Of a stretch of 64,000 bases of DNA, positions 8,853-32,323 are shown piece after piece (positions within the stretch are counted from its first letter, which is position 1; every line of letters begins with the position of its first letter). The notes under the pieces were generated by a model. The model had not been told where the DNA came from. It did no database searches and was given only the letters and a program-made list of their open reading frames with translations. Origin of the DNA: Burkholderiaceae bacterium (GTDB lineage: Bacteria; Pseudomonadota; Gammaproteobacteria; Burkholderiales; Burkholderiaceae_A). The stretch is taken from positions 11,811 to 75,810 of the forward strand of contig VERI01000006.1 in assembly GCA_018882785.1 (NCBI GenBank), in the 5' to 3' direction. The position numbers and the translations under genes were made by a program.

Positions 8853-9850
8853 CGATCCAGAAACTGTTCGGTGTCGATTTCCTCTTGGGTCGGCTGGTTA
8901 TATCGCTCACCAGAAACCGTCTGACGATTGACCAATTGGTCTAACGTTGTCATGACACTCGTATCAAGCACAATACTCGCCGCCGCTACGTTATCCCTCA
9001 AGTGATCTATCGATCGTGTCCCGGGAATCACCAGCATCTCGGGATAACGGTTAAGAATCCAGGCCAAGGCAAGCTGGGCCATGGTGCAGCCAGCCTGATC
9101 TGCAATCGACCCTAGCTGGGGTAACAACCGACGATTGTGCGGATAATTCTCTGCCATGAATCTCGGCATCTGCAGCCGAATATCACCGCGCTGAAGTTGC
9201 GATTCTGGATCGGTGAGCTCACCGCCGAAAAAACCACGTCCGAGTGGACTAAAGGCGACAAACGCAGCCCCAATATCACGGCAGGCCTGGATGACAGCAA
9301 TCTCCGGCTCCCGTGTCCATAAGGAATACTCGCTCTGTACTGCCATGATGGGATGCACAGCGTGGGCCTTGCGAATGGTCTCTGCGGATACCTCGGACAG
9401 CCCCACTCCACGAATCTTTCCGGCCTTCACCAGATCAGAGAGGGCACCGACGCTTTCTTCAATGGGCACAGCAAAGTCAAGGCGATGCAGGTAATAAAGA
9501 TCAATGACATCGGTCTGCAGACGTGCCAGTGCCTGATCACAGGTGGCCTTAATAGTCTCCGGCCGGCCATCAATCACACGTTTTCCGTTAACCCCCGTCA
9601 TGCCGCACTTGCTGGCCAGCATAAAACGATGTCGATGGCTCTTCAGAAACCGGCCCAGAAGTTTTTCATTTTCACCGAATCCGTAGAGGGCGGCGGTATC
9701 AAAAAAATCTACGCCCTGATCGATCGCCGCAAGAAAAAGCCGTCCGGCTGACTCCGCATCGGGCAGATCGCCATAGGCATGACTCACATTCATGCAGCCG
9801 AGACCCACCGAAAATACTGAACCATCCCCCAGGGCGCGCCGTTGATTCAC
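8849..9850 (-). CDS. aldo/keto reductase
   Basis: AKR blocks GLGCM...YG, FFDTAALYG, YYLHRLD and VQSEYSLW. I trimmed the ORF to the GTG at 9850 because the longer ORF would overlap ligC. Confidence 0.8.
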   Translation of the reverse strand: MNQRRALGDGSVFSVGLGCMNVSHAYGDLPDAESAGRLFLAAIDQGVDFFDTAALYGFGENEKLLGRFLKSHRHRFMLASKCGMTGVNGKRVIDGRPETIKATCDQALARLQTDVIDLYYLHRLDFAVPIEESVGALSDLVKAGKIRGVGLSEVSAETIRKAHAVHPIMAVQSEYSLWTREPEIAVIQACRDIGAAFVAFSPLGRGFFGGELTDPESQLQRGDIRLQMPRFMAENYPHNRRLLPQLGSIADQAGCTMAQLALAWILNRYPEMLVIPGTRSIDHLRDNVAAASIVLDTSVMTTLDQLVNRQTVSGERYNQPTQEEIDTEQFLDR

Positions 9851-9866
9851 CGTCAGATCTCCCCGA

Positions 9867-11677
<1,811 letters not shown>

Positions 11678-12130
11678 CTAGGCACTCCCTTTTTGCTCTG
11701 ATCGAGCGGCACTGCCCTGCGGCTGCCGATGCGGCTGGGCATCTCCGTCTTCGCCAAGATACCGATTGCCGTCCACGGAGCGTCCACCGCGGATCATCAT
11801 GTCGCGATACTCCTGCTCGGTCATGCCAGTCATGCTGCCGGCCATCTGCTGAAAACTTAACCCATCGGTCGCGCCGACCTTGGCAAGAAAATAAATGTTT
11901 CCCCCAAGCCGCATACACCAGTTCAGATCACGCGCCAGTACCGCCTGCTTCTGTTCTTCGGTCATGGGCCATTCGTCCAGATACGCCCGTTCGTTGGCCT
12001 TAAAACGTGCACGATTATCTGACTTCATCAAGGACATGCAGAACTGATTTAGCCAATAGCCCTTACGGGATTGGTCTGCATCAAAAATGATGGTTCCCGG
12101 TATATCCAGATAGGGTTTATCTAACGCCAT
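11678..12130 (-). CDS. ligA: protocatechuate 4,5-dioxygenase alpha subunit
   Basis: LigA blocks RKGYWLNQFCMSLMK, RFKANERAYLDEW and GSMTGMTEQEY. The gene abuts the ligB start. Confidence 0.92.
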   Translation of the reverse strand: MALDKPYLDIPGTIIFDADQSRKGYWLNQFCMSLMKSDNRARFKANERAYLDEWPMTEEQKQAVLARDLNWCMRLGGNIYFLAKVGATDGLSFQQMAGSMTGMTEQEYRDMMIRGGRSVDGNRYLGEDGDAQPHRQPQGSAARSEQKGSA

Positions 12131-12133
12131 GGT

Positions 12134-13066
12134 CTAACACTCCTCGGGCCAGTAAAGCCGCATGGGGTTGTCAACAAGCAGTCGCCTCTGCAATTCAAGG
12201 GTTGGGGCGATATGCGGAATGAAGTCGACCAGCAGACCATCATCGGGCATGTGGTCCTTGAGATTGGGATGTGGCCAGTCCGTACCCCAGAGTACGCGAT
12301 CGGAGAATTCTTCAACAACCGTGCGCGCAAAAGGAACTACATCCTGGTAAGCCGATTGTTCGCCGTGTAATGCGGGAGGCCCCGAGACCGAGAGCCGCTC
12401 GGGACAACTGACCTTGCTCCAGACGTTCGGGTGTTCGCGCATAAACCTGAGAAAGAGGCCAAATTCCGGGCCATCAAGAGGCTTGCGGACATCGGGCCGG
12501 CCCATATGATCGACCACCACCGTGGTCGGCAGGGCTGTAAAGAAATCCCAGAGCTCTGGCAGATCCACCGCCTCGAAGTAGATCACGACATGCCAGTTCC
12601 AATTTGCAATTCGGCCAGCGATCTCGAGCAGCTCATCCTTCGGGGTGAAATCTACGAGTCTTTTTACAAAATTAAAGCGCACACCCCGCACGCCGGCATC
12701 ATGCATGGCCTGGAGCTCAGCATCAGTAACGCTGCGACGAACGGTTGCCACACCCCGGGCACGGCCCTGGCTATGCAACAACGCATCGACCATCGCACGG
12801 TTATCCGCCCCATGACAGGTCGCCTGTACCACCACATTACGAGAAAAGCCAAGACGATCCCGCAGCGCAAAGAGCTGATCTTTTGATGCGTCACAGGGGG
12901 TGTATTTGCGCTCGGAGGCATAGGGGAAAAGGTGGCCTGGGCCAAAGACGTGGCAGTGGGCATCTACCGCGTTGGCAGGGACTTTTAACCGTGGAATAGA
13001 AGGACCAGAAAACCAGTCCAGCCATCCCGCAGTCTTCACAAACTCACCGGTGGTCGTCATGCTCAT
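12134..13066 (-). CDS. ligI: 2-pyrone-4,6-dicarboxylate lactonase (amidohydrolase_2 fold)
   Basis: LigI blocks VDAHCHVFGP, LFALRDRLGF, VVDHMGRPDV and WGTDWPHPN. Confidence 0.9.
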   Translation of the reverse strand: MSMTTTGEFVKTAGWLDWFSGPSIPRLKVPANAVDAHCHVFGPGHLFPYASERKYTPCDASKDQLFALRDRLGFSRNVVVQATCHGADNRAMVDALLHSQGRARGVATVRRSVTDAELQAMHDAGVRGVRFNFVKRLVDFTPKDELLEIAGRIANWNWHVVIYFEAVDLPELWDFFTALPTTVVVDHMGRPDVRKPLDGPEFGLFLRFMREHPNVWSKVSCPERLSVSGPPALHGEQSAYQDVVPFARTVVEEFSDRVLWGTDWPHPNLKDHMPDDGLLVDFIPHIAPTLELQRRLLVDNPMRLYWPEEC

Positions 13067-13076
13067 TAAGACATCC

Positions 13077-13760
13077 TTAGTCGATGTATTTCAGGCCTTT
13101 TTTCGCAAGCGGCTCGCGCATGCTGTACATATCCAGCCCCAATACGCCGCTGGCAAGCTTCTCCCGTTTGGCCCCCTCGTTGGCCTCGCGGGCACGCGCC
13201 GCATTCAGCGTCTCACCAGCAATGGCTTTTGGAACACAGACCACGCCATCATCGTCGGCCACGATGACATCGCCGGGGTTGACCAGCATGCCTGCACAGA
13301 CCACCGGAATATTCACAGACCCCAGCGTCTCTTTAATGCAGCCTTTACTTGAGATGCACTTACTCCAGACCGGAAACGCCATTTCATTTAATGTCTTGAC
13401 ATCTCGCACACCAGCATCAATCACCAACGCCCTTGCGCCACGGGCCTGAAAACTTGTGGCCAGCAGATCGCCAAAATAGCCGTCCGTGCACTCCGCCGTG
13501 ATGGCCGCAACCACAATGTCTCCCGGCTGAATCTGCTCGGCGGCCACATGCATCATCCAGTTGTCCCCTGGATGCAGCAGCACCGTGACCGCAGTGCCAG
13601 AGACCTGCACACCACGCTGGATTGGACGAATATAGGGCTGAAGCAGCCCGACCCTGCCCATGGCCTCGTGCACCGTCGCAGAGCCCAGACTCGCCAGGCC
13701 ATCGGCAGCCTGCCGATCAGCACGCGCGATATTCCGATAAACAACACCCAGTTCGTGCAT
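13077..13760 (-). CDS. ligK: 4-carboxy-4-hydroxy-2-oxoadipate aldolase / oxaloacetate decarboxylase (RraA-like fold)
   Basis: LigK/GalC blocks [29 protein letters not shown] and VRDV. Confidence 0.9.
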
Positions 13761-13761
13761 C

Positions 13762-14808
13762 TCAGAGTCCTTTCTTATTTAAGGCCACATCCAGCCGAGA
13801 GTAGACGCGCCGTGCGTTGGCCTCAAAAACTTTATAACGCTGCTCCTGGCTCAGATGGGGTGTGGCCAGAACATAGCGCTTGGTATCGTCATAGTAATGG
13901 CCAGTCTCCGGATCGATCCCGCGGACCGCCCCAATCATTTCGGATGCAAACAGGATATTGTCCACAGGGATCACCTTGGTGAGCAGATCAATACCCGGCT
14001 GGTGATAGACACAGGTATCAAAGAAGATATTTTTCAGCAGATGCTCAACCAAGAGCGGTTTCTTGAGCTCCTGGGCAAGGCCGCGATATCGGCCCCAGTG
14101 ATATGGCGCTGCCCCGCCCCCATGAGGAATCACAAATTTCAGCGTAGGAAAATCTCTGAACAGATCTCCCTGGATGAGCTGCATCACGGCGGTGGTATCG
14201 GCGTTAATGTAGTGGGCACCAGTGGTATGAAAGCAGGCATTACAGCTTGTGGAGACATGAATCATTGCCGGAATATCCAGCTCCACCATTTTTTCGTAGA
14301 TTGGATACCAGTGGCGGTCAGTCAGAGGCGGACTATTCCAATGACCCCCTGATGGATCAGGATTCAGATTGATTCCGACCATTCCATAGTCATGAACACA
14401 GCGATCGATCTCAGCCAGGCAGGTCTTGGGATCCACACCCGGAGACTGTGGCAGCATCGCTGCGCCAATAAAATGATCCGGAAAAAGCTGAGAGACCCGA
14501 TAGCAAAGCTCGTTGCAGATCGACGCCCATGTCGAGGATATATTCACATCCCCGATGTGATGGGCCATAAAACTCGCCCGGGGGCTGAAGATTGTGAGAT
14601 CGGATCCACGCTCTTTCATCTTGGTAAGCTGGTTTAACTCAATCGACTCACGCAGTTCGTCGTCGCTGATCTTCAGGTCCGCCACCTTGGGCATCACGGT
14701 CGGATCCTTGATCCCCGCAATCTGTTTATTTCTCCACTCTTCTAACGCCTTCGGGGCAGTGGTGTAGTGTCCATGGACATCGATGATTAGCGGTTTTTGA
14801 AGACTCAT
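13762..14808 (-). CDS. ligJ: 4-oxalomesaconate hydratase
   Basis: LigJ blocks [35 protein letters not shown] and [14 protein letters not shown]. Confidence 0.9.
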
Positions 14809-14829: not shown

Positions 14830-15522
14830 TCAGACGGGCGTCATGCCATAGTGTGTAATCACCGGCCCCGCTTTAGCCGATGCCATGAACTCAAGCACAG
14901 CGGTCGCCTGGGCCTGTCGTTCTACGTCCCGGCAAGAGCGCGCGATAGCACCAGAAAAAACGGTGTCGATCTGAACGCTATCCGGTAAGGAGGCGACCAG
15001 AGTAATGCCCGCCAGACCCATGAGCTCGGATCGCTGCTGGAACCCGATCGCCACCCGGCCCTGGGCGACCAACTGGCCCACAGGAACACCCGCCGGTGCC
15101 TGGACCAGGCGATCCTTCAGAGTATCCACCACGCCCCAACGCTCAAAGAGGGCCAGTAAGGCCGATCCGCTCGGACCAGTCGAGTACCCAATCGAGGGCG
15201 CTGACAATACGGTCGATCTCAGGGCCTGCTCGGAAGAGATATCGGGCAGCGCATCTCCCTGGCGAACGGCAAGCGCGATCCCCGATCGCATCAGTGGTCG
15301 TAAGGATCTTGCTAAGACGAACCCCTCATCCTGCAGCGATACCAGTGCCTCATTTGCCAGGAACACCAGGTCGAATTCCTCTCCTGCGCGGATTCGTTTT
15401 GCTACATCGACCCCACCGGCTGCGATAAGCGACAGCGGCTGACCACCAAGCGTGCACCACTGCTCGGCCAACGCCGTCAGAATCTGTCGGGAGGCCATCG
15501 AGCAAACGCCTGTCAGCGGCAT
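14830..15522 (-). CDS. ModA-like periplasmic-binding-protein-fold protein without a signal peptide
   Basis: Type II PBP-like blocks (GGVDVAKRIRAGEEFDLVFLA, IGYSTGPSG, GFQQRSEL) and no hydrophobic leader. Its ATG overlaps the reductase TGA in a TGATG arrangement. No modB or modC is nearby. Confidence 0.6.
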   Translation of the reverse strand: MPLTGVCSMASRQILTALAEQWCTLGGQPLSLIAAGGVDVAKRIRAGEEFDLVFLANEALVSLQDEGFVLARSLRPLMRSGIALAVRQGDALPDISSEQALRSTVLSAPSIGYSTGPSGSALLALFERWGVVDTLKDRLVQAPAGVPVGQLVAQGRVAIGFQQRSELMGLAGITLVASLPDSVQIDTVFSGAIARSCRDVERQAQATAVLEFMASAKAGPVITHYGMTPV

Positions 15523-16748
15523 CACGATGTAGCCTGTTTCGGAAGTAGGCCGGCCAGAGCAACGCCCTCATCTGCAGCCTGCTCAGGCGTAGGGAAGACC
15601 TGCTGATCCAGCAGTCTGCGCCCGGCCATATGGTCCTGCGGCCGATTCAGGCTATCCAGTCCAATGAGAGTTGTGCCACGAAAATAAAAGATCGAACACT
15701 TATAGGTCGCCACATCACCACGAATCACCGACAGATCATGGTCTGCAGATGTGCCAACCATCTGAAGTTTCACATCGTACTGATCAGACCAAAACCAGGG
15801 TGCTGCTGAAAACGGACGTTCCTTGCCCATGATCGTGGCCGCGCATGCCTTGGCCTGTTCGATTGCATTTTGTACCGACTCAAGGCGCCGCAGACGTCCA
15901 TCTGCAAGCCGCATAGCGGTGCAGTCTCCGCAGGCAACAATAAATGGATCTGATGTACGGCCACTGGAATCGACCACTACACCTGACTCGCAGACTAGCC
16001 CCGCGGCATCGGCAAGTTCCTGATTGGGAATCACACCAACGCCGACGACGACCAGATCTGCGCTGATAATGCTGCCATCACTCAGAGTCACACCAGATAC
16101 CGCACCATTTGCCGATACAAATCCAGCGACTCCCGACCCCAACCGCACGGATACCCCTCGCTCGGCATGAAGCCGCGCATATATCTCGGAGATCTGGGCT
16201 GAGACTGCCCGTGCCATGAGGCGGTCGGCCGCCTCAATGACAGTGACTGATTTGCCTTTCTTTCGGGCGATTGCCGCAAACTCAAGGCCGATAAAACCAC
16301 CCCCAATCACAGCGATACTGCCCGCCGCTTCCAAGCCCTGAGCAATACGCGTGGCGTCATCCAGAGTACGCAGTGCGAATACACCCTGCAGGTCAGCGCC
16401 CGCCAGCTGACGGGCGCGGGCACCGGTGGCAAGCACCAGACGGTGATACGGCAGGCTGCTGCCGTGACTGAAATGTAGTGTTTTCTCTTCGCGGTCTATC
16501 CGCTCGACACGAATACCAGTACGCAGGGTAATTTGCTTTCGGGCCAGGGCATCGGGTCCGCGCATCGTGAGCTGCTCAGCAGAAGACTCCCCCGACAGAT
16601 AAGTCTTTGAAAGCGGCGGCCGGTGATAAGGCGCGTGGGTCTCGTCTCCCAGCAGGATGACATCACCCTGCCAGCCTTCGGCACGGATTGCCTCAGCAGC
16701 CTGCAGGCCAGCCTGGCCAGCACCGATGATGACAATGGGAAGATTCAT
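15522..16748 (-). CDS. FAD-dependent ferredoxin-NAD(P)+ reductase (putidaredoxin-reductase type)
   Basis: Two dinucleotide-binding motifs (VIIGAGQAG and VIGGGFIGLE) and a C-terminal reductase domain. The start is either ATG 16748 or TTG 16766. Confidence 0.85.
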   Translation of the reverse strand: MNLPIVIIGAGQAGLQAAEAIRAEGWQGDVILLGDETHAPYHRPPLSKTYLSGESSAEQLTMRGPDALARKQITLRTGIRVERIDREEKTLHFSHGSSLPYHRLVLATGARARQLAGADLQGVFALRTLDDATRIAQGLEAAGSIAVIGGGFIGLEFAAIARKKGKSVTVIEAADRLMARAVSAQISEIYARLHAERGVSVRLGSGVAGFVSANGAVSGVTLSDGSIISADLVVVGVGVIPNQELADAAGLVCESGVVVDSSGRTSDPFIVACGDCTAMRLADGRLRRLESVQNAIEQAKACAATIMGKERPFSAAPWFWSDQYDVKLQMVGTSADHDLSVIRGDVATYKCSIFYFRGTTLIGLDSLNRPQDHMAGRRLLDQQVFPTPEQAADEGVALAGLLPKQATS

Positions 16749-16778
16749 AGGCGCTTCGCGACTCAACGCAACGCTGAC

Positions 16779-17102
16779 CTAGATCTGAGTCTCGGGAAGT
16801 CTCACCACGAGACCCGCCAGATCCTCGGACATTTTGATCTGACACGACAGACGGCTATTGGCACGAATCTCCGCAACCGCGTTTTCGAGCATGTCACGCT
16901 CACCCTGCTCTGCCGCCGGCACCTGATCGGCATGAGATTCAATATAACAATGGCAGGTTGCACAGGCACAAGAGCCACCACACTCTGCCTCGATGCCCTC
17001 GACGCCATTGCTGGTTGCCGCCTGCATCAGGCTCCAGCCAACAGGAACATCAATGGTGACCTTGTTTCCAGAGGGTTCGATATACGTTACCTTGGGCATC
17101 AT
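16779..17102 (-). CDS. [2Fe-2S] ferredoxin (adrenodoxin/putidaredoxin type)
   Basis: 107 aa with the cluster motif CGGSCACATCHC plus a distal Cys (RLSCQ). Confidence 0.9.
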   Translation of the reverse strand: MMPKVTYIEPSGNKVTIDVPVGWSLMQAATSNGVEGIEAECGGSCACATCHCYIESHADQVPAAEQGERDMLENAVAEIRANSRLSCQIKMSEDLAGLVVRLPETQI

Positions 17103-17119
17103 ATTTCCTTCATTCGCTA

Positions 17120-18286
17120 TTAGTGAATCTTTACCAGGTCGAGCCGCATCGGGCTGCGGAACGTCGAAGACGGTATCCAGGGCAGTTGATCAGCGGCCCT
17201 TCGATAATCGGGCACGATCTTGTGAAACTCTTCCATTGCGGTCTTCACGGCAAGACGTGCAATCATCGTTCCAAGGCAGGCATGTACGCCACCGCCAAAT
17301 CCGAGATGGCCCCGAGGCTTACGGCCAATGTCATACACGTCTGCATTCGGAAACTGGCGCTCATCTCGATTACCCGCGCCATAGGCTAGGCAGACAAAAT
17401 CGCCCGCCTTCATCTTCTGCCCATGCAGTTCGAGATCTTTTTGCAGGCAGCGACGAAAGCGTTGCGCGGACGTGTTGTACCTCAGGGATTCTTCGATTGC
17501 ATCCGGCAATAAAGAAGGATTCGCTACACACTGACGTCGGGCCTCTGGGTGGTCGGCCAGGTTGTATACGAACATCGACATAAAGCCCGCCAAAGACTCC
17601 ACACCCGCCATAATCAGCGTGGTAGTTGTTAGCAATACCTCGCGCTCATCAAGCCGATCGCCATCAATCTCTGCCATCGAGAAATGAGAAATTAGATCGT
17701 CCTTGGGATTCTTGCGACGCTCTGCAATCACTTGCGCGGCGTAATCCTGCATCCATTGATAGGCCGCAAGATGCTCCGGCCCCTTGGTGCGTGTGGCGGG
17801 ATCGGACTGGACCATCAAGACGGCCTTTTCACGTGCAGTCGCCTCGTCGCCGGTCGGCAGACCGAGAACTGACCATAACACCTTCACGGTGAACTGTGAT
17901 GAGAACTCGGTAATGAAATCAAATTGATCCTGATCGGCAAGCGGCGCGGCCACCGAGCGTGCAATCTCGCGGATCGGTTCTGCGAGACTCTCCAGATTGC
18001 GACGCATAAAGGCATGCTGAATCAGGCCGCGCAGCCGATCGTGTCGGGGGGGATCTGTAGTGCCCAGCGTGTTGCCTGCCCGATTGGGCAGCTCGGTCAT
18101 GAGGTTGCCCTTTGCTGAGGAGAATGTCTGCCAGTCGTTAAGCGCTGTGACGATGTCTGTATACCGAGACAGGACCCACATATTGGCCTCTCGACTCCAG
18201 AAGGCGGGATGCTCATCTCGAAGCGTCTTATAAAACGGAAACGGATCTGCATCCACCGCTGGCGAATAGGGATCAAAGCTAAACAT
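17120..18286 (-). CDS. cytochrome P450 (class I, three-component)
   Basis: Heme-thiolate loop FGGGVHACLG, ExxR (EESLR) and I-helix AGVESL. Start set at MFSFDPY, which follows an AGGAGA Shine-Dalgarno; the longer ORF to 18376 is rejected. Confidence 0.9.
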   Translation of the reverse strand: MFSFDPYSPAVDADPFPFYKTLRDEHPAFWSREANMWVLSRYTDIVTALNDWQTFSSAKGNLMTELPNRAGNTLGTTDPPRHDRLRGLIQHAFMRRNLESLAEPIREIARSVAAPLADQDQFDFITEFSSQFTVKVLWSVLGLPTGDEATAREKAVLMVQSDPATRTKGPEHLAAYQWMQDYAAQVIAERRKNPKDDLISHFSMAEIDGDRLDEREVLLTTTTLIMAGVESLAGFMSMFVYNLADHPEARRQCVANPSLLPDAIEESLRYNTSAQRFRRCLQKDLELHGQKMKAGDFVCLAYGAGNRDERQFPNADVYDIGRKPRGHLGFGGGVHACLGTMIARLAVKTAMEEFHKIVPDYRRAADQLPWIPSSTFRSPMRLDLVKIH

Positions 18287-18464
18287 GACCGTGTCTCCTG
18301 TTTTGATCGTGATGTTTCGACCCGCCCGACCCGGCATTGACCGGGGCTGCTGGTGATGGCTAGAGGCTAGGCCCAATGGGAGGCCGAGCGAATGGACAAT
18401 TTAGTCAAAAACTTGTACTTTTTTTACAAATTAGGCCAAAAATCGAGGAAAACCAGGGACAGAA

Positions 18465-19397
18465 TTGCAAAAAAATCGCATCTCGAATGCTCCCAGCCCG
18501 GTTCTGGCGCCGACCTTCTCGCTCTACGGCGAGGCCCAGACCTCGGTCTCCCCCGAATTTATTCATATCGAAGAAATCTCGGCGCGCAGCGCTGCGCGAA
18601 ACTGGCAGATTGAATCTCACACCCATGAGGGCCTGCTCCAGTTCCTGTTTGTTTTTTCGGGCACCGCACGGATTCAGTTAGACGGCAGCGAGCAGGACTA
18701 TGAGTCGCCGCTGGCGGTGGTAATTCCGCCTCGGGTGATACATGCCTTTAAGTTTCTGCCACAGACCGAGGGCTATGTTCTGACGCTGGATGCGGACGGA
18801 CTTGCAGGCCAGTCTGAAGAGGCCAGTCGAATGTTTTCCGTACTGCGCACCGAAGCCGACGTGATTGGCCTGAATCGCACCAATCAGTCCATCCAACGAT
18901 TCCGCAGTCTTTTGGAACAGATCGATGTCGAGTTCCGTGCGCCAGGCGTCGCAAGCACACGGCTCTTTGTCTGGCTAATTCGTGCACTACTGCTGCTCCT
19001 GGTGCGTGAGCGGCTGCGATCCGAGCAGGAATCTCATGATCATGCCGCGGATCTTACAGATCAATTTCGTACTTTACTCGAGGCACACTTCACCGAGCAC
19101 TGGCCAGTGCAAGACTATGCACGCCAACTCAATCTCACAGAAAGCAGACTGAATCGACTCTGTCAGCACAGATTTCAGCAGACCGCATTTGGACTGATTC
19201 AGTCGCGCCTTCTGCTCGAGGCAAGACGAAAGCTGGTCTATACCGGCACCTCGATATCCCAGCTCTCTTATGAACTGGGATTTACTGATCCCGCTTATTT
19301 TTGCCGCTTCTTTAAAAAGCTCACTGGATATGCGCCAAGCCGCTTCCGCGCCGAGGTCTCAAGGCGCCCCTCTCAAATCAATGATTTCTTGATCTAA
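18465..19397 (+). CDS. AraC family transcriptional regulator (PobR-like cupin N-domain)
   Basis: N-terminal LYGE...HTHEGLLQFLFVFSG...VIPPRVIHAF cupin and a C-terminal double HTH (GFTDPAYFCRFFKK). It is divergent from the P450 operon. Confidence 0.85.
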   Translation: MQKNRISNAPSPVLAPTFSLYGEAQTSVSPEFIHIEEISARSAARNWQIESHTHEGLLQFLFVFSGTARIQLDGSEQDYESPLAVVIPPRVIHAFKFLPQTEGYVLTLDADGLAGQSEEASRMFSVLRTEADVIGLNRTNQSIQRFRSLLEQIDVEFRAPGVASTRLFVWLIRALLLLLVRERLRSEQESHDHAADLTDQFRTLLEAHFTEHWPVQDYARQLNLTESRLNRLCQHRFQQTAFGLIQSRLLLEARRKLVYTGTSISQLSYELGFTDPAYFCRFFKKLTGYAPSRFRAEVSRRPSQINDFLI

Positions 19398-19445: not shown

Positions 19446-20627
19446 CTATTTCACCCGTCGGGCTGATGCGATGAATCGGGGCACGATCCACCGGCCGGCA
19501 AGCACGAGCAATAGACACCAAAACGCGACGCCCCAGGCATAGGGCCGGATACCCCCATCAAGACTGACGGAAAGATATAAGCCCGTCATCACGCCGGCCA
19601 GGGCCATCAGTAGACCTACCCACGATGATGCAGTGCCAGCCTTCTCGGGGAAAAGGCCTGGGGCAGCCGCATTGCTGCAGGGCTGATGAAATCCGTGTGC
19701 AAATCCAAACAACATCTGCATCAGCAACACCGGTGCGACCGCGCGAATCTCCAACCATCCCACGACGATTGCCAGGACTGCTGTCACCAGCGAGATCGTA
19801 CAGGCCGCCTGCATGGTACCCAGAAGCCCCCGCTTCGGAATCATTCGTCGGCAGACCAAGGTACCCACCAAATAGCTTGATGAGCCCATCGCAATCGCCG
19901 CTCCAAACTCCGTGGCAGACGCCTCGAGAAAACGCAGAAAAATAAATGGTCCACCGGAGAGCACCACAAACAAACCACCATACGTGCTTAACGCCACCAA
20001 GGACCAGGACAGAAAACCACGATGGGTCAGAATATCGATGTAGTTGGCTTTGAGTCCCTGCCACTGCGTGGCCTGGACACTTTTACTTGCGATCGTCTCC
20101 GGTACATATCGCCAGACCATCACCAAACCAATCAGACCCGCACAGGCAATCGCAACAATATTGGCGCGCCATCCCCAGATATCCATGAGCACGCCACCAA
20201 GCAGCGGACTGATAATGGCAATAACCCCGAGTCCCGACAGGCCCCGCGCAAGCACCTGCGCACCTTCACCGGTCTCATACAGATCCCGCACCATGGCGCG
20301 CCCGCATACCACCGAGGCCCCAAGCGCAGCACCCTGCACCATTCGCGATAGCAATAGCGCCTCCATGCTCACCGCCAACGCCCCCGCCAATCCGGTCGCC
20401 ACATATAGAAGGAGCCCCCAGAGCAACACAGGCTTTCTGCCCACCCGATCAGAAAGCGCACCCCAGATCAACTGCCCCAGGCCAAAGGCAATCATCGCTC
20501 CAAACATCGTGGCCTGGATCATGATGCTCGGCGCAGAAAACTCCTGACGAATGGCAGGCATCGCCGGGATGAAGAGATCGGTCAATACCGGCTGCAGTCC
20601 GAGCAGCACGGCAAGAAAAAGCGCCAC
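19446..20627 (-). CDS. MFS transporter (Bcr/CflA drug-resistance subfamily)
   Basis: Polytopic protein with the SDRVGRKPVL loop motif. The frame stays open upstream of the GTG, so the true start is uncertain. Confidence 0.75.
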   Translation of the reverse strand: MALFLAVLLGLQPVLTDLFIPAMPAIRQEFSAPSIMIQATMFGAMIAFGLGQLIWGALSDRVGRKPVLLWGLLLYVATGLAGALAVSMEALLLSRMVQGAALGASVVCGRAMVRDLYETGEGAQVLARGLSGLGVIAIISPLLGGVLMDIWGWRANIVAIACAGLIGLVMVWRYVPETIASKSVQATQWQGLKANYIDILTHRGFLSWSLVALSTYGGLFVVLSGGPFIFLRFLEASATEFGAAIAMGSSSYLVGTLVCRRMIPKRGLLGTMQAACTISLVTAVLAIVVGWLEIRAVAPVLLMQMLFGFAHGFHQPCSNAAAPGLFPEKAGTASSWVGLLMALAGVMTGLYLSVSLDGGIRPYAWGVAFWCLLLVLAGRWIVPRFIASARRVK

Positions 20628-20681: not shown

Positions 20682-21476
20682 TCACGCTGCTGAGCGGCCC
20701 AAGGCGTGGCCCAGCCGATGTGAAATCTGGTCGGCCGCATGCTTTAGGTCCCGGGCAATCGGTCCATCGAGATCGGCATCAAAAGTCTCAGCAGGGCCGA
20801 GCGCGGTGATGGCCAAGGCCAGCGCACCAAACTGATCAAACACTGCTGCGCTTAACGCATGAATACCCGGAATTGGCTGGCCGATTGCCTGAGCCATGGC
20901 ATGGCGCCGAATACGGGCCAGTTCCCCTGCCGGCAGGGCAACGTCGACAACTTTCTGGCCTTGGGCAACACGATCACCCAGGGCGATACCTTTTAAAGTC
21001 TCGAGTTTTTCCTCTGGCATGAATGCCGCAAAAATCTTGCCGGTCGCCGTTCGATTAACCGACATCACGGTACCGACCCGCATGTTGACGTGAATCGGCT
21101 GATGAGACTCAATCATTCGAACGACGGTCGGCCCAAGATTTCCCCACACCGCAATCACCACGGACTGATGAATTCTTTCGGCCAACTCCTCCATCAAGGG
21201 CCCGGCAATTTTCAACGGATCCAGCTGTCGCAGGCAGCTCAGGCCAAGCTGCAAGGCGGCTGGCCCAAGACGATACTGACCTGACTCTCGCTCCCGTTCG
21301 ATGAGTCCCAGCCGGCCGAAACTCACCAGATACGGATGGGCCTTGGAGGGAGTCATATCGGCGGCCTGGGCGAGCTCTTTAAGACCCATCGGCCCGGAAT
21401 GTAACGCCAGTGCATTGAGCAGCCGACCCCCAATCTCAATCGACTGTATCGAGCGTTGATTCTCGAATTCACTCAT
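20682..21476 (-). CDS. IclR family transcriptional regulator
   Basis: N-terminal HTH (SIQSIEIGGRLLNALA...MGLKELAQAADMTPSKAHPYLVSF) and a C-terminal effector domain. Start trimmed to MSEFENQ so that it does not overlap fahA. Confidence 0.85.
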   Translation of the reverse strand: MSEFENQRSIQSIEIGGRLLNALALHSGPMGLKELAQAADMTPSKAHPYLVSFGRLGLIERERESGQYRLGPAALQLGLSCLRQLDPLKIAGPLMEELAERIHQSVVIAVWGNLGPTVVRMIESHQPIHVNMRVGTVMSVNRTATGKIFAAFMPEEKLETLKGIALGDRVAQGQKVVDVALPAGELARIRRHAMAQAIGQPIPGIHALSAAVFDQFGALALAITALGPAETFDADLDGPIARDLKHAADQISHRLGHALGRSAA

Positions 21477-21486
21477 GGGGATCAAT

Positions 21487-22776
21487 TCAGTGTCGCGCCG
21501 CAAGAATCTGGCCGACGCACTCACCCAGTCCGATACGTACCGCATCTGACGATTCACAGTACGCTTTTAACACCACCACATCGCCGTCTTGCAAAAATGT
21601 ACGCGACTCTCCATTGGCAAGGGTGATCGGTACTTTGCCGCCGGATGTGAGCTCCAATAGCGAGCCTGCCTCGGATGGCGCGGGACCCGACATGGTGCCG
21701 CTGCCGAACAAATCGCCCGCCTGAAGGTTGCAGCCATTACTGCTGTGGTGGGTCACCATCTGGGCAAATGTCCAATAGGCGTAGCGCAGATTGCTCTTCG
21801 CAAGGCGCTGGGGCGGCTGACCGTCATGACGCATTTTTTCGGTCTGTAACGAAAACTCAAGCACCATATCGATGCCACCACGGCTACGGTCCTGGGGACT
21901 GCTGATATATGGCAAAGGCTGGGGATCATCGGCGGACCGCTCGGCAGGAACTCGAAAAGGCTCAAGGGCCTCCATGGTGACGATCCACGGTGAAATTGTT
22001 GATGCGAAATTCTTGGCAAGAAACGGTCCTAAGGGCTGGTACTCCCAGGCCTGGATATCCCTGGCAGACCAATCATTGAGTACACACAGGCCAAACAGAT
22101 GGTCTTCTGCGTGCGCAATCGGAATCGGATCACCCAGGGCATTTCCTGCGCCGATGAATGCGCCAACCTCGAGCTCAATATCGAGCCGCCTGCAGGCGCC
22201 AAACTCCGGCGGCGCACCGTCTGCAGCGGCCTTGATCTGGCCGGTGGGCCGCACGATCTGCTGGCCGCTGACACCAATCGATGATCCACGGCCGTGGTAG
22301 CCAATCGGCACCCACTTGTAGTTAGGCAGAAGTGGTGCATCCGGCCGAAACAGCTTGCCAACCGCCGTGGCATGATGAATCGACGCATAAAAATCGGTGT
22401 AGTCACCAATCGCACAAGGTAGTTGCATCTGGACATCAGACTGCGGCACCAAGGCTGCACGCAACGCTGAGGCCTCGGCGGCACCCGGACTGAGCCAGCG
22501 CGTGACCTTCGCACGAAAGGCCTTTCGCACAGACGCTCCCTGCGCCATAAAGCCATTCAAATCTCCTTGCCTCAGAAAGCCCGGGACCGCATCGGCGCCT
22601 AGAATCTCTGCCGCCAGCGTGCAGTCCAACACCTGATTGCCAATCGCAATTCCAATCCGAGCGGATGTATCGCCCGTCTTGCGGGAAAACATTCCGTAGG
22701 GAAGATTTTCGATTGGGAAATCGGTCTCGGGATGATTGGCGCTTTCTACCCAGCTGCCTTGGGACTTTTTGCTCAC
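21487..22776 (-). CDS. fahA: fumarylacetoacetase (eukaryote-type, with N-terminal FAH domain)
   Basis: 429 aa with ENLPYGMF near the N-terminus, then GYHGRGSS, LNDWSARDIQAWEYQPLGPF and GDLFGSGT blocks. Confidence 0.88.
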   Translation of the reverse strand: MSKKSQGSWVESANHPETDFPIENLPYGMFSRKTGDTSARIGIAIGNQVLDCTLAAEILGADAVPGFLRQGDLNGFMAQGASVRKAFRAKVTRWLSPGAAEASALRAALVPQSDVQMQLPCAIGDYTDFYASIHHATAVGKLFRPDAPLLPNYKWVPIGYHGRGSSIGVSGQQIVRPTGQIKAAADGAPPEFGACRRLDIELEVGAFIGAGNALGDPIPIAHAEDHLFGLCVLNDWSARDIQAWEYQPLGPFLAKNFASTISPWIVTMEALEPFRVPAERSADDPQPLPYISSPQDRSRGGIDMVLEFSLQTEKMRHDGQPPQRLAKSNLRYAYWTFAQMVTHHSSNGCNLQAGDLFGSGTMSGPAPSEAGSLLELTSGGKVPITLANGESRTFLQDGDVVVLKAYCESSDAVRIGLGECVGQILAARH

Positions 22777-22791
22777 AGTCAGTGGCCCCAG

Positions 22792-23325
22792 TTATTGGAC
22801 AGAGCCGTCATGCATCCAGCGTGCATGATCGGGCGCCCGTTTGGTTTTGCTCCACTCATTGAGCATATCCCACTTCACGCGATCCAGATCCTGCATCATT
22901 TTTGGAGTGCCGGTGTTGACCGCGAGCTCTAATCGATGGCCATTGGGATCAAAAAAATAGATAGATTTAAAGATGGTGTGATTGGTTGGCCCAATTACCT
23001 CTATGCCATCCTGCTCCAGACGGGCTTTTGCCACCAGTAATGCATCCAGACTGTCGACCTCTAAAGCCAAATGCTGGACCCAGTTTGGGGTATTCAGATC
23101 ACGGGACATGTCGGGGCTATTGGGAAGTTCAAAGAACGCCAAAATATTTCCACCACCCGCATCTAGAAAAACATGCATATACGGATCAGGCGCCTTGGTC
23201 GATGGCACTTCATTTTCTGCAATCGCCAATACAAAGTTCATATTCAGGTACTTCTGATACCACTCTACGGTCTGCTTCGCATCTTTGCAGCGATAGGCGA
23301 CATGGTGGATTTTTGATAGCTTCAT
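22792..23325 (-). CDS. VOC (glyoxalase / extradiol dioxygenase) superfamily protein
   Basis: 177 aa with HHVAY, HLALEV and HRLEL, consistent with a 2-His-1-Glu metal site. Confidence 0.75.
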   Translation of the reverse strand: MKLSKIHHVAYRCKDAKQTVEWYQKYLNMNFVLAIAENEVPSTKAPDPYMHVFLDAGGGNILAFFELPNSPDMSRDLNTPNWVQHLALEVDSLDALLVAKARLEQDGIEVIGPTNHTIFKSIYFFDPNGHRLELAVNTGTPKMMQDLDRVKWDMLNEWSKTKRAPDHARWMHDGSVQ

Positions 23326-23343
23326 CAGTAGCTCCCTTCGTGT

Positions 23344-23577
23344 TTAGGACGGCATCACAGATTCACGGGCCAGTCGAAAGGCTTCGCGAAGAATACGCAG
23401 ATCGCCAATGTGATTGGATAAAAACAGCACCAACTTGGCGTTTAGTTCGTGGCTCTGGGCGTCGGTGAGCCCCTCATGGGTCTGTATCAATGCCTCGTAG
23501 AAGTCGTCGCCGGGGCTGAATTCGCGAAACACAGGCTTCTCAAGATCTTTGAAATTGGGCTCTGTAATTAACGGCAT
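23344..23577 (-). CDS. DUF2783-type small protein
   Basis: 77 aa. The LNAKLVLFLSNHIGD block matches my recollection of DUF2783 and the gene sits in an operon position. Confidence 0.55.
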   Translation of the reverse strand: MPLITEPNFKDLEKPVFREFSPGDDFYEALIQTHEGLTDAQSHELNAKLVLFLSNHIGDLRILREAFRLARESVMPS

Positions 23578-23594
23578 GGCGATATCCCTTTCAA

Positions 23595-25262
23595 TTAGTT
23601 ACAGGTGGCCCGAGCCAGCGCGGCCCGAAGAGCATCCATGGTGGGCTTACGCCAGCGGGCCGCAATGTGCTGATCCGGACGAACCAGATAGGCAGTGCCC
23701 TGCTCTGCGTCATACCGCTCTTTAAACCGGGACTTAAGATCAATCAGCACTTTTACACTGTCTGCGCAGGCAGCAGCCACGGTCGCGTTGGCAGCAATCA
23801 CAATCGGGGTGAGCCCAATTCCCCGGATACGACATGCCTTGATATCGGCAATCACGGCATCTGCAGGCGGTTCACGGTCGACATACAAAAGCACAATGAA
23901 TTGATTGGCCACATGACGCAGCAGCCAGCCCTGCTGGCCCTGATCGCTCACGGGAGCATCGTCCATTGGCGCTCCCGGAATCATCTTGCCGGAAAAAGGC
24001 TCCTGGTCCGGGGTATTGAGGCTAGACGTATAGAGAAACGATGGCACCGAGAGCCTGCCTGAATTCACCAGCGCGCGGGCAAATCGATACTGCCGCGCGA
24101 GATCCAAAACCGAATTCCGAAATAACTTGCTCACGGCGGATTTTGGCGTAATGAAGTCGGTAGACCGGGTGGAGTTCATAATGTTTTCATCCGCCGCGTA
24201 CGCCCGCTCTTCGTTATACGACTCCAGTAGCCGCTCGGGCGCATGACCATCCATGACCAGCTTTAACTTCCAGGCCAGATTATCGGAGTCCTGCAGACCG
24301 GAATTCGCGCCACGGGCACCAAAGGGAGAGACCTGATGGGCGGCATCGCCCACAAAAAATATCCGGTGGTGCCGAAAACTTTTCATTCTGCGGCACTGAA
24401 AGGTGTAGACACTGACCCACTCAAGATCGAACTCATGCTGCTCGCCAAGCATCGCCTTGATCCGAGGAATCACCTTTTCTGGTTTTTTCTCCTCTTCGGG
24501 ATCGGCATCCCAGCCGAGCTGAAAATCAATTCTCCAGACATTATCTGCCTCGCGGTGCAGAAGAACAGACTGATTCGGATGAAACGGCGGATCAAACCAG
24601 AACCAACGCTCTGCAGGAAAGTCCGCCTTCATCACGACATCAGCGATCAGAAAACGATCCTGAAATACCCGGCCTTCGATATCTAAGCCCAGCAGGCGGC
24701 GAATCCCGGAGCGGGCGCCATCACCCACGATCAGCCACTCGACATCCAGCATGTAATTGCCATCGGCAGTCTCCACGGTAATCGTGGAGTCGGCCTCGCG
24801 GGCATCGACTGCAACAACCTTGTTCTGCCACCGGATTTCGAGATTCGGCAGCGCATTGGCCCGTTTCAACAGGAACTCTTCAAGGTAGTACTGCTGCAGA
24901 TTGATCATGCCAGGCCGCTCATGATCGGGCTCGGGCGAGAGATTAAATGAGTAGACCTCGTCATTGCGATTAAAGGTGCGGCCAACATTCCATGACACCC
25001 CCTTATCGACCACCATCTGGCCAGCGCCGAGCCGATCCAGAATCTCAAGGGCGCGCTTGGCATAGCACAGGCCGCGCGAGCCAACCGACACCGTGTTGTC
25101 ATCATCGAGCAGGAGCACATCACATCCCTGCTGTGCCAGGTCAACCGCCGTGGCCAGACCCACTGGGCCCGCGCCCACCACAACAACACGGCGTGAGGAT
25201 CGCTGGCCGATCTCAGCAGGACAACGGTATTCGAACTTCGGATAGCGATAGGTCGACAACAT
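23595..25262 (-). CDS. FAD-dependent aromatic-ring monooxygenase (PheA/TfdB/MhpA-like, with C-terminal thioredoxin-like domain)
   Basis: Contains VVVVGAGPVGL, GDGARS and GDAAHQVSPFGARGANSGLQD. At 555 aa it is the long group A hydroxylase type. Confidence 0.85.
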   Translation of the reverse strand: MLSTYRYPKFEYRCPAEIGQRSSRRVVVVGAGPVGLATAVDLAQQGCDVLLLDDDNTVSVGSRGLCYAKRALEILDRLGAGQMVVDKGVSWNVGRTFNRNDEVYSFNLSPEPDHERPGMINLQQYYLEEFLLKRANALPNLEIRWQNKVVAVDAREADSTITVETADGNYMLDVEWLIVGDGARSGIRRLLGLDIEGRVFQDRFLIADVVMKADFPAERWFWFDPPFHPNQSVLLHREADNVWRIDFQLGWDADPEEEKKPEKVIPRIKAMLGEQHEFDLEWVSVYTFQCRRMKSFRHHRIFFVGDAAHQVSPFGARGANSGLQDSDNLAWKLKLVMDGHAPERLLESYNEERAYAADENIMNSTRSTDFITPKSAVSKLFRNSVLDLARQYRFARALVNSGRLSVPSFLYTSSLNTPDQEPFSGKMIPGAPMDDAPVSDQGQQGWLLRHVANQFIVLLYVDREPPADAVIADIKACRIRGIGLTPIVIAANATVAAACADSVKVLIDLKSRFKERYDAEQGTAYLVRPDQHIAARWRKPTMDALRAALARATCN

Positions 25263-25274
25263 CGCGCGGCCCCT

Positions 25275-26237
25275 TTACTGTTGCAATGCCTGCCACATTT
25301 CCTGATCCCGCTGTGCGGTCCAGATACGGGGGTGTTTGATGCCGCTGGCCTCATCAAAGGCACGGGTCACATCAAACGGCAGGCAGTGCTCATAAATAAA
25401 CACGCTTGCAAATTTTGGGTCCATCTTGGCGCGAACATGGGCCATGGTCGCTTTCAGATCCTTGCCGGCCTTCACGGCCTCCTGTGCAGATTCGTACAAC
25501 GTCGACACAAAATCACGGGTATAAGAAATTCCCGCCCGAACCTCTTCCGGAGTCTTTAACGCCGGGCCACGGCCGGGCACAAGCTTTGCGGCATTCAGCT
25601 TCGCAAGGCGCTCTAGCGTTGCTGGCCACTCGGCAAGATGCGCATCACCGGCATAACAGGCGGCGTCATACTCGACGAGATCTCCCGAGAACAGCACCTT
25701 TTCACCGGGCAGCCAGGCGATGGTGTCCCCCTTGGTATGGCCTGCACCAAGTTGCTTGATCTGCACTTCCAGCTTACCCATCCAAAGCGACATCTCACCG
25801 GTAAAGGTCATCGTTGGCCAGGTGAGCCCCGGCACGGATTCCACCGCCTGAAATAGCCTTGGAAAACGGCCGATTTCGGAGTCCATGTCCTGCTGGCCGC
25901 GCTCCACAATCAGATCGTAGGTGTCACGGCTGGCAATAATCTGCTCAAGTCCTGCATCGCGATAGCCAGATGCGCCCAGCACACGCACCGCGTGATAGTG
26001 GGTTAACAAAACGTATTTAATCGGCTTATCGGTAAGGCTGCGAACCCGATCGATGACCCCCTTGGCCATCACGGGCGTGGCAGTCGCATCGATGATCATC
26101 ACCGAGTCATCACCGATGATGATGCCCGTGTTCGGATCCCCTTCGGCGGTATACGCCCAGGCATGCTCCGAGAGCTGCTCAAAACTGACTTTTTTCTCTT
26201 CTAAATCGGCCTGGGATGCGAATGCTTTGGTCGTCAC
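25275..26237 (-). CDS. MBL-fold protein with a degenerate metal motif
   Basis: MBL blocks are present, but HxHxDH reads HYHAVR and the distal His reads Arg (VPGRGP). GTG start preceded by a GGAGGAG Shine-Dalgarno. Confidence 0.75.
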   Translation of the reverse strand: MTTKAFASQADLEEKKVSFEQLSEHAWAYTAEGDPNTGIIIGDDSVMIIDATATPVMAKGVIDRVRSLTDKPIKYVLLTHYHAVRVLGASGYRDAGLEQIIASRDTYDLIVERGQQDMDSEIGRFPRLFQAVESVPGLTWPTMTFTGEMSLWMGKLEVQIKQLGAGHTKGDTIAWLPGEKVLFSGDLVEYDAACYAGDAHLAEWPATLERLAKLNAAKLVPGRGPALKTPEEVRAGISYTRDFVSTLYESAQEAVKAGKDLKATMAHVRAKMDPKFASVFIYEHCLPFDVTRAFDEASGIKHPRIWTAQRDQEMWQALQQ

Positions 26238-31591: not shown

Positions 31592-32323
31592 ATGGCGCAC
31601 ATTCTTATCACGGGACATAGCCGGGGGCTTGGCAGCGCGATTGCCGAGCAACTGCTTGATCTTGGCCACCATGTCTTGGGCCTTTCCCGAAACCCGCATC
31701 GCCGGCTCGGCAAACCTTATGGGCAACAGTTTCGCGAACTCTCTGTTGATCTCGGCCAGCCGCAGGCCTTAAGTGCGTTTCTGAGTACATCAATTCTGGA
31801 AGACTTTTTCAGATCAGCAGACCAGGCCCTACTCATTAACAACGCGGGATTGCTGACACCGATCGGGCCTGCAGGAACACTGGCTCAGGAGCGCATCCTT
31901 GAGTCCGTGACGGTCAATATCGCTGCAGCGCTCGGCCTGGCAAATCAGTTTATTGCGACCACAGCAGCGTGTGCAGATCGGCGTATCGCGCATATCTCCA
32001 GCGGCGCAGGCCGCAGCCCCTATGCCGGCTGGGGTGTCTATTGCGCCAGCAAGGCGGCCTTGGATCACCACGCACGCTGTCTCAATCTGGAGCTCCAAGG
32101 CCGTTGCCGCGTGGAGAGCATTGCCCCCGGCATCATTGACACTGGGATGCAGTCCCAGATCCGTGCCGCATCGTTAGAACAATTTCCGATGCGCCCAAAG
32201 TTTGATCAGCTCAAAGAAACAGGCAGCCTGGCGCCCGCCGAGGGCGTGGCAAAGAAACTCATCGGCCATCTGTTCAGTGATGCATATGGCGATTCGCCCT
32301 GCTCTGATCTAAGAGACTTTTAA
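31592..32323 (+). CDS. SDR family oxidoreductase
   Basis: ITGHSRGLG cofactor motif, NNAG, and a YxxxK catalytic pair (YCASK). Confidence 0.85.
   Translation: MAHILITGHSRGLGSAIAEQLLDLGHHVLGLSRNPHRRLGKPYGQQFRELSVDLGQPQALSAFLSTSILEDFFRSADQALLINNAGLLTPIGPAGTLAQERILESVTVNIAAALGLANQFIATTAACADRRIAHISSGAGRSPYAGWGVYCASKAALDHHARCLNLELQGRCRVESIAPGIIDTGMQSQIRAASLEQFPMRPKFDQLKETGSLAPAEGVAKKLIGHLFSDAYGDSPCSDLRDF

Follow-up and report, generated by a model that had tools for sequence, protein, structure and literature searches.

A stretch of 64,000 nucleotides from a Burkholderiaceae bacterium (GenBank assembly GCA_018882785.1, contig VERI01000006.1, positions 11,811 to 75,810 of the forward strand; called the window here) carries a cytochrome P450 gene at the head of a protocatechuate 4,5-cleavage (lig) operon, with a gene for an AraC-type regulator divergent from it. 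Which reaction would a P450 carry out at this position, and how did it come to stand there? We tentatively propose that in many Alpha- and Betaproteobacteria with the 4,5-cleavage pathway a haem-dependent hydroxylase of the P450 subfamily CYP203A replaced the flavoprotein PobA under a PobR-type switch, and that in the freshwater Burkholderiaceae lineage of the window it captured control of the whole pathway.

The operon and its P450

The 12-gene minus-strand string ran from 18286 to 8849, with the P450 gene as its head and an aldo/keto reductase (AKR) gene as its tail. The order was P450, ferredoxin (Fdx), ferredoxin reductase (FdR), a gene for a protein of solute-binding protein (SBP) fold, ligJ, ligK, ligI, ligA, ligB, ligC and AKR, and every gene lay where the original prediction had placed it. 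The features are as follows.

18465-19397, plus strand, AraC/XylS-type regulator of the PobR family (Pfam HTH_18, HTH_AraC and Cupin_2)
17120-18286, minus strand, cytochrome P450, CYP203A, 388 aa (PF00067, E 7e-27; ATG at 18286 preceded by AGGAGA)
16779-17102, minus strand, [2Fe-2S] ferredoxin of the adrenodoxin/putidaredoxin type, 107 aa (Pfam Fer2; CX5CX2C...C)
15522-16766, minus strand, FAD-dependent ferredoxin-NAD(+) reductase, 414 aa (Pyr_redox_2 and Reductase_C)
14830-15525, minus strand, SBP_bac_11 protein without a signal peptide (PF13531, E 3e-35)
13762-14808, minus strand, ligJ, 4-oxalomesaconate hydratase, 348 aa (PDB 2GWG, E 2.4e-200; 6DWV, E 8e-147)
13077-13760, minus strand, ligK, 4-carboxy-4-hydroxy-2-oxoadipate (CHA) aldolase/oxaloacetate decarboxylase (TIGR02798, 405 bits against a cut-off of 304.5)
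12134-13066, minus strand, ligI, 2-pyrone-4,6-dicarboxylate hydrolase, 310 aa (PDB 4D8L, E 2.4e-107)
11678-12130, minus strand, ligA, protocatechuate 4,5-dioxygenase alpha subunit (TIGR02792, 228.7 bits against 108.6; PRK13377, 253 against 173)
10817-11677, minus strand, ligB, protocatechuate 4,5-dioxygenase beta subunit (PRK13366, 584 bits against 317)
9867-10820, minus strand, ligC/pmdC, 4-carboxy-2-hydroxymuconate-6-semialdehyde (CHMS) dehydrogenase, a GFO/IDH/MocA protein (PDB 9AZO, PmdC, E 1.4e-172)
8849-9850, minus strand, aldo/keto reductase (PF00248; GTG start at 9850, Shine-Dalgarno sequence GGGGAG)
19446-20627, minus strand, flanking major facilitator superfamily (MFS) transporter, Bcr/CflA-like

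LigAB, LigC, LigI, LigJ and LigK (two of the proteins of the string being Amidohydro_2 members by Pfam) made up the full protocatechuate 4,5-cleavage gene set except for LigU, the 4-oxalomesaconate tautomerase of PrpF type, of which no homologue was found in the window by tblastn. Separate genes for a [2Fe-2S] ferredoxin and an FAD-dependent reductase directly followed the P450 gene at distances of 17 and 12 nt, as expected of the class I, three-component system that had been predicted. The best NCBIfam match of the ferredoxin was fdx_isc, below its cut-off, and the top matches of the reductase were dioxygenase ferredoxin reductases.

From P450 to AKR the successive gaps were 17, 12, -4, 21, 1, 10, 3, 0, -4 and 16 nt. 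The stop codon of the FdR gene overlapped the start codon of the SBP gene, and the ATG of ligC (at 10820) overlapped the stop of ligB (ATGA). Terminator-like sites numbered 10 across the region against 9.4 expected from shuffled sequences, and the scan placed none in any intergenic gap of the P450-AKR string. An internal terminator or promoter dividing the P450 genes from ligJ, which the original prediction had named as a point that could overturn it, was rejected, with nothing above chance and the FdR and SBP genes overlapping. The P450-to-AKR string thus reads as a single transcription unit, judged from spacing and the terminator scan; the earlier claim of one unit, made from gaps of -4 to about 30 nt, stood on gaps of -4 to 21 nt and the lack of intergenic terminator-like sites. 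The 3′ end of the operon abuts a convergent MFS gene (7644-8852), and at the 5′ end 178 nt separate the start codons of the divergent AraC and P450 genes.

The best PDB match of the window P450 was 8FBC (P450-T2; E 5.6e-196, 654 bits, 289 of 383 residues identical, 75.5%). [quoted passage not shown] By the rule that a subfamily member shares >55% amino-acid identity with a named one, the window P450 belongs to CYP203A, a family assignment that the original prediction had left to a comparison with CYP199, CYP255 and other named families. The haem-thiolate motif FGGGVHACLG (FxxGxHxCxG) and the acid-alcohol pair of the I-helix (AGVES) were both present. Membership of CYP199 or CYP255, which would call for a best match in that family at ≥40% identity, was rejected on the PDB scores, the CYP199 entry reaching 155 bits and P450-T2 654. 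Among the 60 PDB matches listed, none was named GcoA or CYP255.

For CYP203A1, binding of 4-hydroxybenzoic acid and further substituted aromatics is reported, with chlorophenols, chlorobenzenes and trichlorobenzoate among the ligands (PMC7780096). P450-T2 binds L-mimosine and emodin, with no turnover reported (PMC7780096). The concern that the closest characterised homologues might act on terpenes, alkanes or other non-aromatic substrates did not apply, as both enzymes are reported to bind phenolic or benzoate-type aromatics and not terpenes or alkanes. In the full-text literature available without subscription, no reaction, natural substrate, redox partner or genomic role was found assigned to CYP203A; nor was any P450 described as a feeder of protocatechuate, in line with the original remark that no P450-to-meta-cleavage funnel was known. 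CYP203A1, CYP203A2 (Novosphingobium aromaticivorans) and P450-T2 are of the same subfamily as the window protein; beyond what is published for these named members, the window P450 is encoded together with a ferredoxin, a reductase, a regulator and a downstream pathway.

The substrate pocket was compared at the 17 positions that had been probed by mutagenesis in the work on 8FBC (PMC11334723). All 17 were identical between the window P450 and P450-T2, and 13 of them were invariant in 38 family members (51-100% identity), against 24% of all positions in the protein. The invariant set included Asn61, Arg69, Thr73, Lys168 and Ser373 (window numbering). Pocket changes (T375N, and L66F or L62M) were seen in a subgroup of P450s at ≤63% identity to that of the window. 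Such a conserved pocket would fit a single small, polar and probably anionic substrate.

A module that recurs beside LigAB genes

A genome scan with the window P450 gave 31 loci (loci are cited here by L numbers), and their synteny was compared by local tblastn. The conserved core was an AraC gene divergent from P450-Fdx-FdR, with the ferredoxin gene directly following the P450 gene in most loci. It was present in Burkholderiales (Rubrivivax, Ideonella, Piscinibacter and Ramlibacter), Rhodocyclaceae, Hyphomicrobiales and other Alphaproteobacteria, and also in Steroidobacteraceae, Thiodiazotropha and Amphritea. Cultured carriers were Azoarcus olearius BH72, Azoarcus sp. DD4, Azospirillum brasilense, A. 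argentinense and Bradyrhizobium sp. BR13661. The P450-lig arrangement is thus not confined to the window; sequenced genomes commonly carry the module, under no fuller label than "cytochrome P450".

LigAB-type genes were found no more than 10 kb from the module in Alpha-, Beta- and Gammaproteobacteria and in at least four distinct arrangements, a linkage spanning Burkholderiales, Rhodocyclales (Azoarcus BH72), Azospirillum, Bradyrhizobium, Thiodiazotropha and Amphritea. In the window lineage only (L002-L005, L027 and L031) it was fused head-to-tail to the lig genes. It was convergent with a full lig cluster in Ideonella, Thiodiazotropha and Azospirillum, and had LigAB clusters on both sides in Azoarcus BH72. 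In Bradyrhizobium, which served as a proxy for the gene context in R. palustris, it was inserted in mid-cluster (LigBA, LysR, P450, Fdx, then LigC-LigI-SBP-LigK-LigJ). Such repeated and rearranged linkage to LigAB is hard to explain unless the product of the P450 enters the protocatechuate pathway.

Two LigB lineages with a mutual identity of only 43-48% were found near modules. Since the second was the sole LigB of the complete Azospirillum and Bradyrhizobium lig clusters, it is most simply taken as another protocatechuate 4,5-dioxygenase. The idea that the second LigAB paralogue marks a product other than protocatechuate was weakened by the same clusters.

A mobile-looking block, made up of second-lineage LigBA, a divergent LysR gene and AraC divergent from P450-Fdx-FdR, was seen amid unrelated genes in Rubrivivax albus (L012, 5991-12655) and in Azoarcus olearius BH72 (L041, 1140-12851, with a tripartite ATP-independent periplasmic (TRAP) transporter attached). 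TRAP transporters flanked several modules, and in L020, L024 and Novosphingobium EMRT-2 the module stood alone among unrelated genes.

Lig operons without a P450 were found in Variovorax ureilyticus, Curvibacter and Pseudaquabacterium. They were headed by the SBP gene, with a divergent LysR gene, and ran through optional transporter genes to ligJ-ligK-ligI-ligA-ligB-ligC-AKR. The window LigB was 83-85% identical to those of Variovorax and Curvibacter. SBP orthologues in lig operons were 45-57% identical to that of the window, and none had a signal-peptide-like N-terminus; in Bradyrhizobium the gene lay between ligK and ligI. By this comparison the SBP and AKR genes belong to the ancestral Burkholderiales lig operon and not to the P450 module. 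The idea that the SBP-fold protein assists the P450 or belongs to a periplasmic transporter was rejected, as this protein has no signal peptide and its gene heads lig operons that lack the P450.

Signal-less SBP_bac_11 proteins of ~230 aa were conserved in lig/pmd operons of Burkholderiales and Bradyrhizobium at the pmdU position (e.g. window 14830-15525, minus strand; L044 13523-14212; L046-L048 8001-8700). No NCBIfam equivalog model matched the protein, which some sources mis-name as a molybdate-binding protein. A PrpF-type ligU was found exactly where the SBP gene was absent, and the window, which lacks ligU, has the SBP gene. Window SBP-ligJ-ligK-ligI-ligA-ligB-ligC matches gene for gene the Comamonas operon, the order of which we take to be pmdUKEFDABC, and the window SBP gene would then sit at the position of pmdU. 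PmdU has been grouped with LigU and GalD as the step that converts 4-oxalomesaconate (PMC12314914). The SBP_bac_11 protein may be a PmdU-type 4-oxalomesaconate tautomerase that replaces LigU.

The AKR gene was conserved as the last gene after ligC in lig operons of Burkholderiales and Rhodocyclales (L046-L048, L008, L017, L027 and L041; coordinates 8849-9850 on the minus strand of the window, 15302-16303 in L046, 15629-16666 in L048 and 18064-19059 in L041). We know of no role for it in the 4,5-cleavage pathway. Several lig clusters of Burkholderiales (L008 ~17925-18850, L023 ~1518-2480 and L048 11486-12466) had a gene for a protein with NAD_binding_2 and DUF1932 domains inserted between ligK and ligI; the window lacks it.

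The Comamonas operon and the ligJABC and ligK-ligU-ligI operons of Sphingobium SYK-6 likewise serve protocatechuate 4,5-cleavage, under divergent LysR control and without a feeder oxygenase, whereas the window has AraC-P450-Fdx-FdR in the place of LysR. Gene-order comparison indicated that, in the window lineage, AraC-P450-Fdx-FdR replaced the LysR gene and promoter of the lig operon, and therefore the whole ring-cleavage pathway would depend on the promoter of the feeder. In the nearest metagenome-assembled genomes (L001, L003, L004 and L005; P450 94-96% identical) the AraC gene and the operator described below were absent. There (around locus positions 8796-10001) the MFS gene that flanks the window locus at 19446-20627 stood directly upstream of the P450 gene on the same strand, 26 nt separating its end from the P450 start, and upstream there was an IclR gene. 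On this comparison these genomes have since lost the AraC gene, and regulation would therefore differ between near-identical lineages.

The regulator, its operator and the distribution of pobA

Over 296 aa, the cupin effector domain included, the window AraC protein was 35% identical to the regulator divergent from pobA on a plasmid of Pseudomonas putida YC-AE1. Six plasmid homologues outside P450 loci (32-35% identity) were inspected, and five adjoined pobA (P. putida YC-AE1, Azospirillum B510, Phyllobacterium, Novosphingobium P6W and Haematobacter); the sixth, from Burkholderia THE68, had no pobA within 6 kb. P. putida PobR was up to 43% identical to the P450-linked AraC proteins, a value equal to the identity among these proteins themselves. 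The window regulator and true PobR both matched the NCBIfam HpaA model with similar sub-threshold scores, and in a neighbour-joining tree most of the P450-linked regulators formed a clade of their own beside the pobA-linked ones. By this homology the window regulator is a member of the AraC-type PobR family, and the resemblance to PobR noted in the original prediction was borne out over the full length of the protein, by the pobA neighbourhoods and by a common operator-like motif. Its family points to 4-hydroxybenzoate as the signal.

Two elements were recognised in the intergenic region between AraC and P450.

18392-18421, minus strand, bipartite operator-like motif AAAGTACAAG-N13-TGTCCAT
~18357-18369, TAGCCT/TAGCCA, -10-like boxes ~52-64 nt from the motif towards the P450 gene

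The consensus across the intergenic regions was AAAGTRCAAG, ~11 nt, and TGTCCA, with a TAnnnT box ~57 nt downstream; the motif resembled a direct repeat with a spacing of ~21 bp. A strict pattern, AAAGTRCA-N(12-22)-GTCCAT, occurred once in the 64 kb (0.01 expected), in the AraC-P450 intergenic region. Among all loci fetched, its occurrences were confined to AraC-P450 intergenic regions and to the one between pobR and pobA in Azospirillum B510. Of the 26 intergenic regions linked to a P450, 23 had the first half-site with at most one mismatch. Three further pobR-pobA intergenic regions were compared, and there the strict motif was matched only loosely or was absent.

The window locus thus shares with the pobR-pobA divergon a homologous regulator, the same divergent geometry upstream of protocatechuate degradation, and an operator-like motif common to at least one true pair. 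The two differ in that the window regulator is of a distinct clade and is divergent from the P450 gene, not from pobA; that the window oxygenase is a three-component haem P450, PobA being a single-component FAD enzyme; and that the window promoter would drive the entire ring-cleavage pathway, the pobA promoter just the feeder. The window system can be viewed as a pobR-pobA feeder joined to a pmd/lig operon, with a class I P450 of an orphan family as its oxygenase. These comparisons make it a relative of AraC-type PobR systems, but not their equivalent in position.

No pobA was found in the window, nor in the loci whose P450 was ≥68% identical to that of the window. Among Azospirillum chromids of the plasmid collection, pobA occurred in five records (B510, lipoferum, ramasamyi, oryzae and thermophilum) and CYP203A in ten (brasilense, argentinense and TSH58), with no species common to both sets. 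A published genome comparison, in which A. brasilense has only the meta-cleavage pathway for protocatechuate and the conversion of 4-hydroxybenzoate is placed in strains 4B and B510, agrees with this split (PMC3899980).

The reaction of the P450 and its rivals

In the mechanism that we propose, the PobR-family AraC activator would bind the bipartite direct-repeat operator in the 178-bp intergenic region, sense an aromatic-acid effector and activate one 12-gene operon. Electrons would pass from NADH through the FAD reductase and the [2Fe-2S] ferredoxin to the haem of CYP203A. This system would hydroxylate 4-hydroxybenzoate at C3, as a non-orthologous haem stand-in for the flavoprotein PobA, and the resulting protocatechuate would be converted by the pmdU-position protein and the products of ligJ, ligK, ligI, ligAB, ligC and the AKR gene into pyruvate and oxaloacetate. 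The arrangement would have come about by fusion of a portable AraC-P450-Fdx-FdR module onto the front of an operon of Comamonadaceae type (SBP-ligJKIABC-AKR); LysR would thereby have been displaced, and ring cleavage tied to the inducer of the feeder in the window lineage. We put 4-hydroxybenzoate 3-hydroxylation to protocatechuate at somewhat under an even chance, and favour it because of the PobR-family regulator, the operator-like motif shared with the B510 pobR-pobA pair, the report that CYP203A1 binds 4-hydroxybenzoate, the lack of pobA in the window and in the loci at ≥68% P450 identity, and the Azospirillum split.

Several observations weigh against this assignment. The reports on CYP203A concern binding only, chlorinated benzenes, L-mimosine and emodin among the ligands, and no activity of any member has been demonstrated; known bacterial aromatic-acid P450s are mostly O-demethylases. 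The clade of P450-linked regulators is separate from that of pobA-linked ones, and the effector may have shifted; the regulator adjoining the Bradyrhizobium P450 is a LysR and not an AraC protein. The Azospirillum split comes from a plasmid collection, with the main chromosomes outside it. On the megaplasmid of Novosphingobium sp. PP1Y (L049, 6429-18000), pobR was divergent from same-strand pobA-ligA-ligB-CYP203 (60% identity), and a PobA-family gene lay near the Amphritea module; "P450 instead of PobA" is thus not universal, and PP1Y complicates the original view that the P450 occupies the pobA position. Both cases would be odd if the P450 merely duplicated PobA. They were confined to the ≤63%-identity subgroup with pocket changes, and their P450s may for that reason differ in substrate. 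PP1Y was the sole locus among those compared where a true pobA and CYP203 occupied one apparent operon. Next to it on the other strand came ligI-ligU-ligK, then ligJ and a VanA-like Rieske open reading frame (ORF).

If the PobR-like regulator had been retuned, CYP203A could instead be an aromatic O-demethylase that converts vanillate, isovanillate or a related methoxybenzoate into protocatechuate and formaldehyde, in a role parallel to VanAB and LigM and a chemistry parallel to CYP199A and GcoA; we hold this main rival to be somewhat less likely than hydroxylation. Such chemistry is easy for a P450, and the characterised P450 feeders for aromatic acids (CYP199A2/A4 and GcoA) demethylate. CYP199A2/A4 with palustrisredoxin and its reductase, a 4-methoxybenzoate O-demethylase, is like the window system of class I and acts on a para-substituted benzoate, and GcoAB (the CYP255A guaiacol demethylase) also acts on small lignin-type aromatics; the former is of another CYP family, and the latter is both two-component and of another family. 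We know of neither fused to a ring-cleavage operon. In a pocket that bound 4-hydroxybenzoate with C3 towards the haem, the 3-methoxy substituent of vanillate would come to lie at the iron. The separate clade of P450-linked regulators suits demethylation, as do the PobA genes of PP1Y and Amphritea, which would be sensible if two enzymes fed different substrates to protocatechuate, and the LigAB linkage fits it equally well. The regulator family, on the other hand, is that of the 4-hydroxybenzoate system, and the operator-like motif is shared with one pobR-pobA pair of that system, no formaldehyde-handling genes were found in the operon, and a vanillate-demethylating P450 would be redundant in PP1Y too, given the VanA-like Rieske ORF. 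The published list of CYP203A1 ligands, as cited in PMC7780096, has 4-hydroxybenzoic acid and no methoxybenzoate.

Distinctly unlikely, in our view, is that the P450 starts from a different substrate or joins the pathway at a different step, by 4-hydroxylation of 3-hydroxybenzoate, by conversion of benzoate or 4-methoxybenzoate to 4-hydroxybenzoate (with pobA elsewhere), or by O-demethylation or hydroxylation to gallate-type substrates of LigAB-type dioxygenases. Many modules adjoin the second LigAB lineage with its own LysR gene, and LigAB-type enzymes are known to cleave gallate and 3-O-methylgallate as well (Sphingobium SYK-6), but the second LigB is the sole one of the complete Azospirillum and Bradyrhizobium clusters. 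The pobA-ligAB-P450 order of PP1Y would make a coherent route from benzoate or anisate through 4-hydroxybenzoate to protocatechuate; in the window there is no pobA within 64 kb to carry 4-hydroxybenzoate onward, and the regulator family indicates 4-hydroxybenzoate itself as the signal. The TRAP transporters beside several modules, of unassigned specificity, would also accommodate another substrate. That the adjacency is incidental, the P450 being a broad xenobiotic or detoxifying oxygenase (e.g. for chlorinated phenols or benzenes) and no feeder at all, appears very improbable. The stand-alone modules agree with it, as do the chlorophenols, chlorobenzenes and trichlorobenzoate reported as ligands of CYP203A1 (PMC7780096); against it are the LigAB linkage in several classes and at least four architectures (mid-cluster insertion in Bradyrhizobium included), the fusion of P450 and lig genes in the window, at spacings of -4 to 21 nt, and the near-invariant polar pocket, which argues for one specific substrate.

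For the favoured 3-hydroxylation, a precedent is the self-sufficient CYP116B of Cupriavidus pinatubonensis JMP134, which converts 2-hydroxyphenylacetate to homogentisate (PMC8449657). There a bacterial P450 hydroxylates the ring of a phenolic acid to give a central ring-cleavage substrate; it differs from the window enzyme in family, fused redox domain, substrate and pathway (homogentisate).

Two further features of the window lay outside this operon. A second aromatic-looking block (20682-26237, minus strand), which may serve a gentisate- or homogentisate-type route, encoded an IclR regulator, a fumarylacetoacetase (TIGR01266, above cut-off), a 177-aa glyoxalase-fold protein, a 555-aa FAD monooxygenase (PRK08132) and a metallo-beta-lactamase (MBL)-fold protein. 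At 32309-33250 (minus strand) an HODM_asu-like ORF, resembling the alpha subunit of a haem-dependent oxidative N-demethylase, adjoined a methyltransferase-domain gene and an amino-acid permease gene.

CYP203A has been an orphan since 2006: its members have been purified, crystallised and evolved for carbene chemistry, yet no natural reaction is known for it. The context described here brings together the redox partners of the P450, a PobR-type switch whose operator-like motif recurs at a true pobR-pobA pair, a recurrent link to LigAB and cultured carriers that are genetically tractable; it narrows the candidate substrates to a few benzoates, and the natural role becomes testable by a simple assay. 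The lig operon, with AraC put in front of it in exchange for LysR, also shows clearly how the capture of a module can rewire regulation. If 4-hydroxybenzoate hydroxylation proves true, CYP203A would be a second, unrelated enzyme for a step that textbooks and pathway-gap tools give only to PobA; it would explain genomes with lig genes and without pobA, and would offer a new part for lignin-funnelling strains.

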